Shown: in pieces, positions 57,249 to 60,462 of the stretch
Layout: every line of letters begins with the position of its first letter
Position numbering within the stretch: position 1 is the first letter of the stretch
Origin: an uncultured Rhodospirillales bacterium
Lineage (GTDB): Bacteria; Pseudomonadota; Alphaproteobacteria; UBA9219; RGZA01
Length of the DNA stretch: 64,000 nucleotides
Direction: 5' to 3'
NCBI GenBank assembly: GCA_964568585.1
Contig: CAZMQI010000002.1
Location: 9,237-73,236 of the forward strand
The notes under the pieces: model-generated
What the model was told of the DNA's origin: nothing
Database searches by the model: none
The model's input: only the letters and a program-made list of their open reading frames with translations
Position numbers and translations under genes: made by a program

Positions 57249-58580
57249 TTACGCAGTGCCGCGCGGTGGCGATTGGGTATGAATGACAAATCGGTTTGTC
57301 GTTGCTGTAACTGTGGTCGGCGGCCCCGCAGCAGGCTGCACGCTGGCAATCAATGTACGTATCTGCTGTGTACCAGCCGCAGTCAAGTGCAGCCCGTCTG
57401 CATCTTTTTGTATTCCTCTATCCCGTGTCACAATGGGTTGGATAGGTGGCCTGTCAGGATGCGCTTGATTATGTTCCCGTATGGTTTCGGTAATGACATT
57501 CGCGACTCTGGCAAGGCCCGCATCGTTGTGAGCGCTGCCTTGATTATTACCGGGCAATACCCAGTTATTTATTCTCACGCCAGCGCGGTCTGCTGCCTGC
57601 AAAAATAACTGCACCTGACGCTTATTTTCTGCATCAGGATATGGACCGTTATTACTACCCAGCACGACATCCGCAACAGCGCCGGGTCTCAAATGGCGGA
57701 ACTGCGCTGCTGCCGCCCCAATACTCACACCGACCACAGCGACGTTTTGCTTATTGGGATATGCCCATTTCAAGCTTGCGCCAATGCTATCACCCATAAT
57801 CACATTGCTTTCAGCGCGGGGATGCTGCACGGAGTTATTGACCAAGCCATGCGTTGGCGGATGCGCAACCACAGGTCGTATATCCTGCCTGCCATCACGC
57901 GGCGGCCCACTGGGCGATGCGTAGGGTGGCGCGTAAGGTGGCGCTTGTTGTGGTGAACCTTCATTCTGGCGATTGATACGAAGACCTGTTGGCTGCGGGG
58001 GCGTTTGTTGCGGCAATGGCTCGGCGGGTCTAAATGCGTTGCCAATAGAATTACCGATAGTATTCATGACGGTGTTGAATCCGCGCCCAATGGCCGCGAA
58101 CGCATCTCTAAACCCTTGCATAAAACTATTGGTTGAAACCGTGCGCTGTCCATACGTTGAACCTGGAAGCGATGCCCATTCCTGACGACATTTATATGCG
58201 GCTTGCTGGATATTGCCATTAATCACATCATTAAGCGCGCCACGCTGTGCAATCAATGCCACGGCTGCTATGTCCTGTGTATGCGGCTTGAAATCATTGA
58301 ACCCATGGGCACGTGCGATACGGTCCCACGTATAGCTCATGAACTGATAGCGACCCGCTGCATTTGAACGCAGACTTGGATTAAGCTGCACCATAATGCG
58401 TGGATGGTCGACATACCCGTTGTTGAATTGGCCATGACCCACATTGATGTTATAACCACGGTCCCCTCGTCCATAGGTTCCTTCTGCCTTGGCAATCGCA
58501 TCCAGAAATGCGCGCACATTCTGGTTTTGCAATGCAGCTTCATATTGAGCGTATTGTGGTGAACGGGGAAAATTTGTCAT
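57249..58580 (-). CDS. Leaderless two-enzyme protein E1: lambda-R-type (GH104) lytic transglycosylase + SGNH/GDSL esterase, with glycine zipper and tail motifs
   Basis: aa ~20-155 are collinear with phage lambda R as I recall it (AFLDAIAKAEGT, HPRIMVQLNPSLRSNAAGRYQF, FKPHTQD, WASLPGSTYGQ). Glycine zipper FAAIGRGFNTVMNTIGNSIGNAF. LRINR at 57969-57983. SGNH blocks IMGDSIG, VVLGSNNG and DGLHLT. The C-terminus RFVIHTQSPPRGTA* has its motif at 57273-57290. Confidence 0.85.
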   Translation of the reverse strand: MTNFPRSPQYAQYEAALQNQNVRAFLDAIAKAEGTYGRGDRGYNINVGHGQFNNGYVDHPRIMVQLNPSLRSNAAGRYQFMSYTWDRIARAHGFNDFKPHTQDIAAVALIAQRGALNDVINGNIQQAAYKCRQEWASLPGSTYGQRTVSTNSFMQGFRDAFAAIGRGFNTVMNTIGNSIGNAFRPAEPLPQQTPPQPTGLRINRQNEGSPQQAPPYAPPYASPSGPPRDGRQDIRPVVAHPPTHGLVNNSVQHPRAESNVIMGDSIGASLKWAYPNKQNVAVVGVSIGAAAAQFRHLRPGAVADVVLGSNNGPYPDAENKRQVQLFLQAADRAGVRINNWVLPGNNQGSAHNDAGLARVANVITETIREHNQAHPDRPPIQPIVTRDRGIQKDADGLHLTAAGTQQIRTLIASVQPAAGPPTTVTATTNRFVIHTQSPPRGTA

Positions 58581-58593
58581 CTATTCGCCCGTC

Positions 58594-59433
58594 TTATGTC
58601 GGTTGGCGCGGCGGAGATGGGTGATTGTCATGTTGCCGATGTATTGTGAAGGATGGCGCAGGATGCGGAGCGACAGCTGCAACAACAGATCGCTTCATCG
58701 GGGTTACCTGTGCGGGAGGACGATGTTCATGCCCGCGTACCGGTACGCCATATTGTGCATAGGGTTGTACATGCGACGCTGATGGCTCGTCGCTAATGCG
58801 ATTAATACGCAACGATGGGCTTTGCGCGTGCGGAGCTGGTGCAGGCGTTTCGTTGGAACCAAATACACGCTTAAATGCTCCGCTCACCGTATCAACCACG
58901 CGGTTATAGGTATTACTGATGGCAGCGGCCACTTCGCGGATAAAGCCCATCGCAGTGCGCTGGCGACGGTTAGTCTCGCCACTGCGATTATCATAGCGCT
59001 CGAACTGATGCATTGCTTCAACAGCTTGGCCAAGATTGCTCGAACGCTTCAACATATCGCCTGCCTGGCGCTCACTACCAAAGGCGGGGCCTGGAACGTT
59101 CAAATTATCACGGCGCGGAATGCCCATTTCATGCATCGCAAAATCAATCTGTGTAGTAACGGGATCTTGTCCTGGACGTGCAGCAACGAAGCGTTGCATG
59201 TTGGTGTAACGTTGTTCACGCCATTGGAATAATCCATGCGCTTCACGGCCACGACCCAGATTTCTGTCGCCAACCACGCTCAAGTTAAAGTTGGATTCAT
59301 GTTTTATCGCAGCCATCACTGCAGCGGTCTGATGTTGATTGAATTGATACGCCGTTGTCAGGTGATGCAGTGCACGCCGACGATTATCATCGGGATCATT
59401 TGTTGGAATACGTGCTCGCTGGTTTACAGCCAT
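58594..59433 (-). CDS. Leaderless protein E2: phage-tail-lysozyme-type domain + tail module
   Basis: AAVMAAIKHESNFNLSVVGDRNLGRGREAHGLFQWREQRYTNMQRF fits the phage tail lysozyme pattern (ES.FNP..GD....GL.QW...R). AAAISNTYNRVVDTVSGAF. LRINR at 58798-58812. FTIHR at 58636-58650. The stop is 13 nt before the E1 start. Confidence 0.75.
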   Translation of the reverse strand: MAVNQRARIPTNDPDDNRRRALHHLTTAYQFNQHQTAAVMAAIKHESNFNLSVVGDRNLGRGREAHGLFQWREQRYTNMQRFVAARPGQDPVTTQIDFAMHEMGIPRRDNLNVPGPAFGSERQAGDMLKRSSNLGQAVEAMHQFERYDNRSGETNRRQRTAMGFIREVAAAISNTYNRVVDTVSGAFKRVFGSNETPAPAPHAQSPSLRINRISDEPSASHVQPYAQYGVPVRGHEHRPPAQVTPMKRSVVAAVAPHPAPSFTIHRQHDNHPSPPRQPT

Positions 59434-59478
59434 GTGCCTATCTCTTTGAAATTCATTACTTACTTTAATTTCTTATCA

Positions 59479-59505
59479 TTAAAACTTGGTGAAATAATTG
59501 TTAAC
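59479..59505. promoter_or_regulatory. 27-bp conserved upstream motif (copy upstream of E2)
   Basis: TTAAAACTTGGTGAAATAATTGTTAAC, which reads TTAA-N7-TGAA-N7-TTAAC. It lies 46-72 nt upstream of the E2 ATG. It has the same architecture as 60519-60545 and 17/27 identity to it. Confidence 0.4.
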
Positions 59506-59601
59506 GCCCAAGGAAATCTCAGTGTCGTTTTGTATATATAACAATAGTTTATTTGTGGGTGTGCCTAATATCACAGGCTAATTTGCTTAAAACCCGAATA
59601 T

Positions 59602-60462
59602 TTAAGGGCGCGGGGTTACGTGTGGAGCAGGACTAGCTGGAGCATTTTGCTCTGGGAATGCTTCACTTTGGCGGCGAATGGTGAGCGGGACATGCGGCGG
59701 GTGCGGTGTCAAAACACGAGGCTCCGGCGGTGATTGCTGCACGTAGTTCGTGGGTATTTGCGGGCGTCGCTGTGGGACTTCAGGGGGATGTGTTTGTTGG
59801 CGCGGCTGCGGATGTGCTTGTGGATGTGGTTGCGATGATGGTGATAACGCATCACCAATGCGATTAATCACCCAGCGTGCGCCATTCGCTATCCCTGTCG
59901 CAACGTTTGCTATACCTTGACCAATAGCGCCGACAACATCGCCGATGAAATTTCCAACCCCGCGGATAAGATTACCAAAGCGGGTATTCCACCATCTAGT
60001 ATCAGGGGTTTCAACACCAAAACGCTCGCCTCTTGAACGAAACGTTTCCCTGCCCACACCCACAGATTCCGATGCATTACCCGTTGCGCCAAGACTTAGA
60101 TTGGTTCCATTTCTGCAGACTTTGCTAATCGTATCGATGAATTGCCGATTATTCGAATATCCAGGCTCGGGTTGATGCGCTGGCCAATAATTATAATTAC
60201 CATGGTTACGCAGTTCATAATCAATTGTATGGCCACGCGATGCACAACGATTGAATACAGTTTCTGCCCATGCCATTTGCGCTTCAGGACCTTGCGCGCC
60301 AACTTCTTTTTGCATACGCCCGGCAAAGGCATACATGGTAGCGGTTGGATTGCCAGAACTATCAAATAGCTGGCTCATGAATTGCCTGCGATCAACAATC
60401 GCATTACGATTGTTGCGCGGATCACCTTGTCGATTTTCTCTATCAACGGGAATACGCGCCAT
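59602..60462 (-). CDS. Leaderless protein F: possible SleB-like cell-wall hydrolase domain + glycine zipper + tail motifs
   Basis: EVGAQGPEAQMAWAETVFNRCASRG resembles the E..G....A.A.V..NR core of the Hydrolase_2/SleB family (by eye). Glycine zipper IRGVGNFIGDVVGAIGQGIANVATGIANGA. WVINR at 59860-59874. LTIRR at 59671-59685. The N-terminus MARIPVDREN...DPRNNRNA resembles the E2 N-terminus. Confidence 0.65.
   Translation of the reverse strand: MARIPVDRENRQGDPRNNRNAIVDRRQFMSQLFDSSGNPTATMYAFAGRMQKEVGAQGPEAQMAWAETVFNRCASRGHTIDYELRNHGNYNYWPAHQPEPGYSNNRQFIDTISKVCRNGTNLSLGATGNASESVGVGRETFRSRGERFGVETPDTRWWNTRFGNLIRGVGNFIGDVVGAIGQGIANVATGIANGARWVINRIGDALSPSSQPHPQAHPQPRQQTHPPEVPQRRPQIPTNYVQQSPPEPRVLTPHPPHVPLTIRRQSEAFPEQNAPASPAPHVTPRP

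Follow-up and report, generated by a model that had tools for sequence, protein, structure and literature searches.

A genome-specific short motif on disordered tails of leaderless, phage-type muralytic enzymes in an alphaproteobacterial lineage: a candidate docking tag

How peptidoglycan hydrolases without an export leader gain entry to their substrate is a recurring open question. The Tae/Tge cargo effectors of type VI secretion systems (T6SS) are leaderless amidases and muramidases sent as a set, with cognate immunity genes, and in SpmX of the Caulobacterales a lysozyme-type head, which has no leader either, leads into a disordered Pro-rich region and two C-terminal transmembrane helices. 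In the bacteria-killing type IV secretion system (T4SS) of Xanthomonas and Stenotrophomonas, the XVIPCD-tailed effectors called X-Tfe have in common a recognition module at the C-terminus, part of which is Gln-rich, and those acting on peptidoglycan are accompanied by periplasmic (lipoprotein) immunity proteins (PMC10933484); the leaderless X-Tfe(XAC2609) of Xanthomonas reaches the periplasm by an unknown route (PMC10933484). Here we analyzed 64,000 nucleotides, hereafter the window, from an uncultured Rhodospirillales bacterium (contig CAZMQI010000002.1, positions 9,237 to 73,236), in which three consecutive minus-strand genes, E1, E2 and F, encode leaderless enzymes with muralytic heads and a tail bearing short linear motifs. 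The original prediction made from this DNA, namely three adjacent genes, placed exactly as found here, in which different leaderless muralytic heads are joined to one shared non-catalytic module, is upheld. Overall, the observation holds in part and could be extended, and the interpretation attached to it gains partial support. The shared tail is new, and its logic resembles that of known sets of tagged cargo.

The enzymes are without leaders, as had been claimed. A hydrophobic N-terminal stretch was looked for in E1, E2 and F and none was found; each open reading frame (ORF) was opened at the first ATG, GTG or TTG past the upstream stop, so that the three begin at the first possible start codon and a hidden leader is therefore impossible. 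In the whole set of motif-bearing proteins described below, the 19-residue Kyte-Doolittle mean peaks at 0.7-1.45 and no segment exceeds 1.5, and a membrane-anchored hydrolase, either tail-anchored or of the signal-anchor-release (SAR) type, is disfavored by this lack of any transmembrane-grade hydrophobic segment. All six of these proteins are basic, with isoelectric points (pI) of 9.7-10.7. Ordinary envelope proteins of the window, including a housekeeping-type M23 peptidase at 33558-34976, carry normal Sec or lipoprotein leaders, and therefore the leaderless set, at least six motif-bearing wall enzymes packed into about 75 kb, constitutes a separate toolkit. The E1/E2/F block is flanked by alpha-glucosidase and lepA on one side and by leuB-leuD-leuC on the other, with the same GC content as its surroundings. 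Gaps of 13 and 168 bp separate the three genes, and gaps of 154 and 43 bp also occur around them; immunity ORFs therefore cannot fit between the genes, which agrees with the prediction that there are none.

The tail has a recognizable layout: an amphipathic, Gly-rich helix that closes with IGxAF(S/R)P comes first, then a Pro/Gln linker, and then motifs of the form W-x-hydrophobic-N/H. MAFFT puts the tails of the F and E1 families and of ORF372, a further protein of the window, into one architecture of helix, linker and motif column, and AlphaFold predicts the tails as disordered (F residues 170-286, E1 residues 158-255 and 416-443), with a predicted local distance difference test (pLDDT) below 50. 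It had been proposed that all three enzymes share the three elements and that their likeness exceeds low-complexity background in a profile search. A profile of F-family tails only, run against the 424 ORFs of the window, found ORF372 (E=2e-7) and E1 (E=3e-3), for which the proposal holds, but reached E2 only at E=1. With a profile made without E2, the E2 tail of the window scores 11.6 bits, which 0 of 500 shuffles reach, and its orthologue in the related locus L008 scores 0.5 bits, which 51 of 500 shuffles reach. Judged by these profiles, the Gly-zipper helix is homologous in E1 and F and at best marginally related in E2, while the linker and the motif stand in all three. Searches of the tails by sequence or profile against Pfam, NCBIfam, PHROGs and the PDB gave no match (the best PDB entry, adenovirus pre-protein VI, is not significant at E=0.11), in agreement with the view that the tail is unlike any described signal.

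The motif, first described as hydrophobic-x-I-[N/H/R]-[R/T], is real and conserved in position, but its consensus is broader, W/L/F-x-I/V/M/F-N/H/R, over 5-6 residues and with one to three copies per protein. When a regular expression derived from the motifs of E1, E2 and F was applied to the last 35 residues of the window ORFs, exactly five matched: the three themselves, ORF372 and an M23 peptidase encoded at 158-826, both of the latter being leaderless and of wall-enzyme type. The module is present at 57249-60462, where it was noticed, but it is not limited to this region, as the tail also occurs on the gene at 47520-48638, and the motif by itself on the gene at 158-826 and on that of an M15-like peptidase just upstream of the window. 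Nor does the expectation that the tail always stands C-terminal to a hydrolase head hold. The motif may be C-terminal, may lie between domains (E1) or may be N-terminal (the M15-like protein), and therefore a docking motif fits better than a terminal secretion signal.

The position of the motif is kept in orthologues, and its sequence is genome-specific and common to different proteins of one genome. The window genome has the variants LRINR, FVIHT, FTIHR, LTIRR, WRINT, LQIHR, LRIHT and LHINR. Related genomes have WVMHRH, FVMHRH, WRMQRH and WAMQRH (L008); WVMHRL, WRMHRL, FVMHRH and WAMHRQ (L003); WKFNMD, WQFNMS and WNFGQD (L010); WIINGY, WVIGAG and WIINTT (L009); and WKINLN, WKVNLN and WHINLN (the P0017/P0033 contig). 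In eight related genomes, the identity of motif 6-mers between different families of the same genome is 0.54, as against 0.26 for different families and 0.33 at orthologous sites when genomes are compared with each other; when the labels were permuted 20,000 times, the observed value was never reached, and the outcome was the same without the two closest genome pairs. Since paralogous copies are more alike than orthologous ones, a 5-6-residue element evolves in concert within fast-diverging linkers, which is most simply explained if all copies in a genome bind one common partner. The evidence speaks strongly for a shared docking motif, and one co-evolving partner protein in each genome probably reads all its copies. 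It could be argued that low-complexity Pro/Gln tails are alike by chance and that no module is shared, as the motif is very short and the helix of E2 is not reliably found by profiles. However, the F-only profile finds ORF372 and E1, a library-wide search gives only clade members over the full tail (see below), the regular expression adds only the two ORFs mentioned, and the motif is conserved in position and co-varies within genomes, so that a chance likeness is very hard to credit.

The reading that we favor, which is tentative and falls somewhat short of being probable, is that a lineage-specific docking tag routes phage-derived lysins to one Sec-independent route of delivery or release. 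The tail would be a disordered docking module consisting of an optional Gly-rich helix, a Pro/Gln linker and a strand-like short linear motif, and its carriers would be phage-derived, strongly basic, leaderless muralytic enzymes, the putative heads being GH104 or another lysozyme-like domain together with SGNH, Phage_lysozyme2, SleB-like, M23, M15-like and one further head. All motif copies of a genome would bind a single partner protein encoded there and co-evolving with the motif, and this partner may lead the enzymes, once made in the cytoplasm, to a shared exit independent of Sec. This exit could be delivery or export against the walls of other cells or a regulated release onto the wall of the producing cell itself, and the enzymes would afterwards cooperate in glycan cleavage, O-acetyl removal and peptide cleavage. 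More doubtful, though possible, is a sharper form, in which the W-x-hydrophobic-N/H motif would be the cargo tag of an undescribed clade-specific delivery or release system, bound by one adaptor through strand addition as a genome-specific 'zip code'; the adaptor would bring the entire set of lytic enzymes through the envelope independently of Sec, and predation or antagonism could be the purpose. If the partner were a component of export or delivery, this would mean a new class of cargo signal, a motif in a disordered region instead of a folded domain. What is more, a short genome-specific motif on a whole lytic toolkit gives a handle on the machinery, both as a peptide bait and through the co-variation signal.

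Several points weigh against the docking-tag reading. The sites in the co-variation test were picked by eye from alignments and two of its genomes were paired only by the equal length of their contigs, and gene conversion between tails could in principle be another source of concerted change. E2 shares the layout and the motif, but its helix homology is unreliable. No secretion, injection or holin genes, and none of the type I secretion system (T1SS), T4SS or T6SS, were found in the 64-kb window or the fetched flanks, the sequence covered amounting to some 85 kb in this genome and to flanks no longer than 10 kb in its relatives. Antibacterial effectors that act on peptidoglycan by cell contact typically have immunity genes beside them, and such genes are lacking here. 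Finally, we infer both the single partner with its targeting or export role and the passage of the proteins out of the cytoplasm to the peptidoglycan.

The distribution of the module is narrow. A tail profile of 22 sequences, run against 1.84 billion representative proteins, gave 21 matches at E<=1e-3; those over the full length of the tail are members of the clade only (F-, E1- and E2-type proteins, P0034 and P0269), and the remaining ones are large Gly-zipper repeat proteins matched over the helix part only. Homologues are confined to a handful of alphaproteobacterial metagenome-assembled genomes (MAGs). A scan for the F family found only two related MAG loci in genome contigs and, in metagenomes, only distant phage-like proteins having an F-type head and no tail, and neither GenBank phages nor PLSDB plasmids yielded a tblastn match to the F head, to full-length F or to ORF372. 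LepA of the window is 91-97% identical to that of Alphaproteobacteria MAGs only and 80-82% identical to that of Azospirillum and Niveispirillum; a Micavibrio-like predator was among the identities considered. In the sister lineage (LepA 84%), an unrelated 1529-aa protein holds the same slot and the tail is absent. Full-length matches being limited to the clade, with none in the sister lineage, phages or plasmids, the tail module is thus a recent invention confined to the clade and unrelated to XVIPCD and to all Pfam and PDB entries. A locus in a 'Bdellovibrionales bacterium' MAG added no information. Inside the clade, the order leuB-F-(E2)-E1-amylase-lepA...NUDIX-154aa-ORF372 is kept in all related genomes with homologues, and the leuB...lepA synteny is the same in six related loci; E1, E2 and F are vertically inherited, syntenic core genes. 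The identity between genomes is 93-96% for LepA, 89-93% for LeuB, 76-83% for the amylase, 63-79% for the heads and 46-51% for the tails.

The suggestion that the three genes follow the logic of polymorphic effectors is weakened, as syntenic, vertically inherited core genes without immunity genes do not look like classical polymorphic toxins. The missing immunity genes speak against contact-dependent systems to which kin are exposed, X-T4SS or T6SS for example, and a T1SS C-terminal signal, also among the suggestions, is disfavored because all six proteins have a pI of 9.7-10.7 and no RTX GGxGxD repeats, and so do not look like acidic RTX-type substrates. Another idea is that of bacteriocin-like lysins of the pesticin or colicin M type, whose tail would hold import epitopes in the form of TonB-box- or Tol-box-like strands, pass through an outer-membrane protein of relatives and attach to their periplasmic energy-transducing protein. 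A strand-like motif in a disordered Pro-rich region is what one would expect then, and the likeness to TonB boxes in disordered termini is close, as the TonB box of colicin M (E2TLTV6) lies in an unstructured N-terminal domain; TonB boxes can be lineage-specific (PMC8469651), a motif is possible at either terminus, and co-variation with the cell's own import protein would be expected where the targets are relatives. However, colicin-type loci have an immunity gene beside the toxin and are usually mobile (PMC8469651), whereas here there is none and the core is syntenic; moreover, two or three motif copies per protein are unusual and a receptor-binding domain is not evident, which leaves bacteriocins decidedly improbable.

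A surface-anchoring module, which had been offered as the alternative at the outset, is a further candidate reading. Vertical inheritance in a syntenic core would suit a scaffold or anchor module for the cell's own wall-remodelling enzymes, the motif docking several hydrolases on one scaffold or polar assembly, with an unrecognised export route or a role as interaction domain, or else an SpmX-like cytoplasmic moonlighting. Several copies per protein suit avidity binding, SpmX with its leaderless lysozyme domain and subsequent Pro-rich disordered region is an alphaproteobacterial precedent, and small leaderless PG_binding_1 proteins with a genome-specific C-terminal motif of their own are encoded nearby. 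On the other hand, five or six catalytic families all keep their catalytic signatures, the housekeeping hydrolases of the window use Sec leaders, and the sister lineage, at the corresponding slot, lacks the module, which therefore serves no general cell-biological need; we consider this role distinctly unlikely and retain the docking-tag reading.

E1 residues 19-163 match lambda lysozyme (1am7 and 3d3d, E=1.5e-30), to which the head is 44% identical in the Foldseek alignment, and the xEGT motif with the catalytic Glu is kept (AKAEGT opposite AWSEGT of lambda); the homology and this residue confirm the predicted lambda-R-type GH104 head. E1 is not a mere head plus tail, as had been thought, for a domain at residues 256-415, situated between both motif copies and forming a second globular domain in the AlphaFold model, was overlooked. 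Its Foldseek matches are PAF acetylhydrolase, GDSL lipases/esterases, PatB, OatA and Cj0610c (E=1e-5 to 1e-3, probability 1.0), and the blocks GDS (G263-D264-S265), GxNN (N310/N311) and DGxH (D395-x-x-H398) do not vary among 10 sequences; neither Pfam nor PDB gave a match to the sequence of this domain. SGNH/GDSL hydrolases are marked by a flavodoxin-like alpha/beta fold with GDS as block I, GxN(D/N) as block III and DxxH as block V, and by its modelled fold and these blocks the domain is one of them. Because it is fused to a lytic transglycosylase and has PatB, OatA and Cj0610c as fold neighbors, we propose it as a candidate peptidoglycan O-acetyl esterase (Ape-type). O-acetylated N-acetylmuramic acid (MurNAc) blocks lytic transglycosylases, and therefore a fusion of such an enzyme with a de-O-acetylase is biochemically sensible; the GH104-SGNH protein would be a compact candidate enzyme for the degradation of O-acetylated cell walls. 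At the first motif site of E1 other genomes have GWVMHRH, GWRMHRL, GWVVSPS, LWQFNMS or RWKVNLN. A further W element right before the SGNH domain, GWVNNRP, is constant between genomes and probably belongs to that domain. In L009, L010 and P0033, the GH104 head in the E1 slot is swapped for another head, with the helix, motif, SGNH domain and final motif kept. The replacement head (L009:1841-3016, L010:10908-12359, P0033) carries GAGGAGxHYWGxYQFG.

The head of E2 belongs to Pfam PF18013, Phage_lysozyme2 (69 bits against a cut-off of 28.2, E=6e-19), as its designation as a phage-tail-lysozyme type had anticipated. The SleB-like designation of F finds support at the level of fold but not of sequence. 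Its head gave no match to hidden Markov models and no PDB sequence match; in the AlphaFold model based on 14 orthologues residues 12-165 are folded (pLDDT mostly 75-96), and the top three Foldseek neighbors are SleB catalytic domains, with target-normalised TM-scores of 0.62-0.67 and probabilities of 0.95-0.99 at E values of only 0.14-0.32; 4fet has a TM-score of 0.67, a probability of 0.99 and E=0.14. The label SleB-like, supported by the modelled fold, is given for that reason on fold only. An F-type SleB-like domain is also N-terminal in a 1429-aa protein on a phage-like soil metagenome contig (L005:1988-6277), which suggests that the F head derives from virion-associated lysins.

Among the further motif-bearing proteins, the head of ORF372 obtained only a chance-level PLC match around SHNTY, and its L008 orthologue has both motifs and no helix. 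The M23 peptidase is assigned by Pfam PF01551 (E=5e-24). The M15-like peptidase is so named for a LAS-type SxHxxGxAxD...HxH pattern (SEHHRGNAMD...HLHFQF) and a sub-threshold Pfam match (E=0.06); one motif, QWRIYRQ, stands near its N-terminus and another, PLHINRIGSQA, at its C-terminus, and it has an internal amphipathic helix, the Gly-zipper helix being absent. TTAA-N7-TTAA lies 79 nt upstream of its start. All features are located in Table 1. Downstream of ORF372, three small leaderless Pro/Ala-rich proteins are encoded at 45457-47218 (-) and, in L008, at 20128-21117, and an L008 orthologue matches PG_binding_1; they have a second, genome-specific C-terminal linear motif, GNIADFDVPE and RNLTDFDLPE in the window and GEVGTTELP, twice, in L008.

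Table 1. Positions of the motif-bearing genes, their domains and motifs, and the upstream boxes (window coordinates unless a locus is named)
Feature	Positions	Strand	Description
E1 gene	57249..58580	-	443 aa, leaderless; GH104 lytic transglycosylase, tail helix, motif, predicted SGNH esterase, motif
E1 GH104 (lambda R-type) domain	58092..58538	-	residues 15-163; PDB 1am7 E=1.5e-30; PHROG endolysin E=2e-38
E1 Gly-rich amphipathic helix	58032..58112	-	FRDAFAAIGRGFNTVMNTIGNSIGNAF, residues 157-183; aligns with F, ORF372 and E1-family helices; F-only profile E=3e-3
E1 motif copy 1	57966..57986	-	GLRINRQ, residues 199-205; in disordered Pro/Gln linker
E1 SGNH/GDSL hydrolase domain	57336..57815	-	residues 256-415; by fold and conserved blocks; candidate peptidoglycan O-acetyl esterase
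E1 C-terminal motif	57273..57293	-	RFVIHTQ, residues 430-436
E2 gene	58594..59433	-	279 aa, leaderless; Phage_lysozyme2 head (residues 19-162), amphipathic helix (162-192), two motifs
E2 motif	58795-58815	-	SLRINRI
E2 motif	58633-58653	-	SFTIHRQ
Conserved box upstream of E2	59488..59504	-	TTAACAATTATTTCACC
F gene	59602..60462	-	286 aa, leaderless; SleB-like head (residues 12-165), Gly-zipper helix, two motifs
F Gly-zipper helix	59878-59979	-	residues 162-195
F motif	59860-59877	-	RWVINR
F motif	59668-59688	-	PLTIRRQ
Conserved box upstream of F	60528..60544	-	TTAATGCTTCCTTCACC
ORF372	47520..48638	-	372 aa, leaderless, same tail; helix 47766-47861, NWRINTL 47601-47621, PLQIHRI 47529-47549
M23 peptidase	158..826	+	222 aa, leaderless; Pro/Ala/Thr linker, then ALRIHTQT (800-820) at the end; no Gly-zipper helix
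M15-like peptidase	L012:9051-9989		312 aa, leaderless; encoded shortly ahead of window position 1 in the same genome, with the M23 gene next to it

The boxes upstream of F and E2 have the form GTTAA-N7-TTCACCA-N3/4-TTTAA, for which two exact matches were found in 64 kb against 0.10 expected. Four other genomes have the box conserved upstream of F, two have it upstream of E2, and a genome without E2 has it upstream of E1; it is present in L003, L004, L008 and L009, that is, in five genomes with the window, and these shared upstream sequences therefore suggest that F and E2/E1 are co-regulated. A scan for sigma-70 promoters and terminators stayed at background level, and a perfect TTAA-N7-TTAA stands at 47279-47293, upstream of a 205-aa gene. 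The box differs by one base from the CtrA full site, a resemblance to be taken as a lead. CtrA controls gene transfer agents (GTAs) in other alphaproteobacteria; a CtrA-type box was looked for upstream of ccrM and of the GTA cluster of the window, and none was found. This cluster, RcGTA-like and located at about 11150-25850 (-), holds terminase, portal, prohead protease, capsid and tail genes, with a 1137-aa host-specificity protein that has a Gly-zipper N-terminus.

An alternative is that the enzymes are a domesticated endolysin set for programmed autolysis, e.g. for release of the GTA encoded in the window. Harmless in the cytoplasm, they would reach the wall via a membrane lesion, and the tail would bind the membrane, a holin-like protein or a cytoplasmic inhibitor that sets the time of lysis. 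That the proteins are leaderless, basic and phage-type, lambda R being the archetypal endolysin, speaks for such a set, as do the vertical inheritance of the genes beside the RcGTA-like cluster, the promoter boxes one base off the site of a regulator of GTAs, and the fact that immunity genes would not be needed. Mechanisms of GTA lysis, moreover, vary among alphaproteobacteria (PMC13236601). Nevertheless, a holin or spanin adjoins none of the genes, a lysis cassette does not typically hold six lysins whose disordered tails are long and evolve fast, and the box is an unproven CtrA site that is not found upstream of the GTA cluster or ccrM. An endolysin set is thus unlikely in our judgment, and the docking-tag reading, which includes regulated release onto the cell's own wall as one outcome, is kept.

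Two further observations were made in the window. The CxDxR...HxxC pattern of two divergent paralogues at 50118-50990 and 51097-51867 (-) recalls beta-carbonic anhydrases; Pfam gave no match to them, and they are conserved in all related loci. Between leuC and leuD, at 62339-62608 (-), a protein of 89 aa is encoded beside a DUF4177 gene; it has two or three transmembrane segments, and its C-terminus is charged. A similar pair of DUF4177 and a small ORF follows leuD in the sister lineage L018, and the pair is therefore not specific to the tail-bearing clade.

Comparing the toolkit with known systems, it resembles the X-Tfe in that leaderless peptidoglycan hydrolases and other enzymes with different heads have a common C-terminal module (PMC10933484). 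However, XVIPCD is a folded domain of ~120 residues, whereas the tail here is disordered and bears a motif of 5-6 residues, and X-Tfe genes adjoin genes for periplasmic lipoprotein immunity proteins, none of which occurs in the gaps of this locus (13, 168, 154 and 43 bp). With pLDDT below 50, no Pfam or PDB profile match and no adjacent immunity gene, the tails do not belong to XVIPCD. Colicin M, pesticin and S-type pyocins are likewise enzymes without leaders that target the envelope; their disordered, Pro-rich terminus contains a short epitope that forms a strand and binds a conserved partner (PMC8469651; PMC10994204). Unlike them, the genes described here are core and chromosomal, lack an immunity gene or a receptor-binding domain, and have a multi-copy, mostly C-terminal motif; an adjacent immunity gene in a mobile or variable locus, usual for colicin- and pesticin-like toxins, is not what the leuB...lepA synteny of six related loci presents.

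The endolysin R of lambda is leaderless and basic and can build up harmlessly in the cytoplasm, and the head of E1 resembles it. Its cassettes differ in having an adjacent holin and spanin, whereas no small membrane-protein ORF flanks any of the genes here, so that a holin-endolysin cassette is rejected, and the present enzymes have long disordered motif tails, several enzyme classes and an SGNH fusion. The Tae/Tge effectors are similar as a leaderless wall-enzyme set; they have immunity genes and no common C-terminal tail, and no T6SS genes were seen in the DNA covered. SpmX shares the alphaproteobacterial origin and the leaderless lysozyme-type head leading into a Pro-rich disordered region, but it is a single protein with transmembrane helices, whereas the present proteins have no transmembrane segments and many different catalytic heads. 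CdzC and CdzD of Caulobacter, alphaproteobacterial too, have a Gly-zipper-like segment in common with the tail. In contrast, Cdz are small T1SS-exported peptides forming surface aggregates, whereas the Gly-zipper helix of the present proteins is an accessory of large basic enzymes, and neither the M23 and M15-like proteins nor the ORF372 orthologue of L008 have it.

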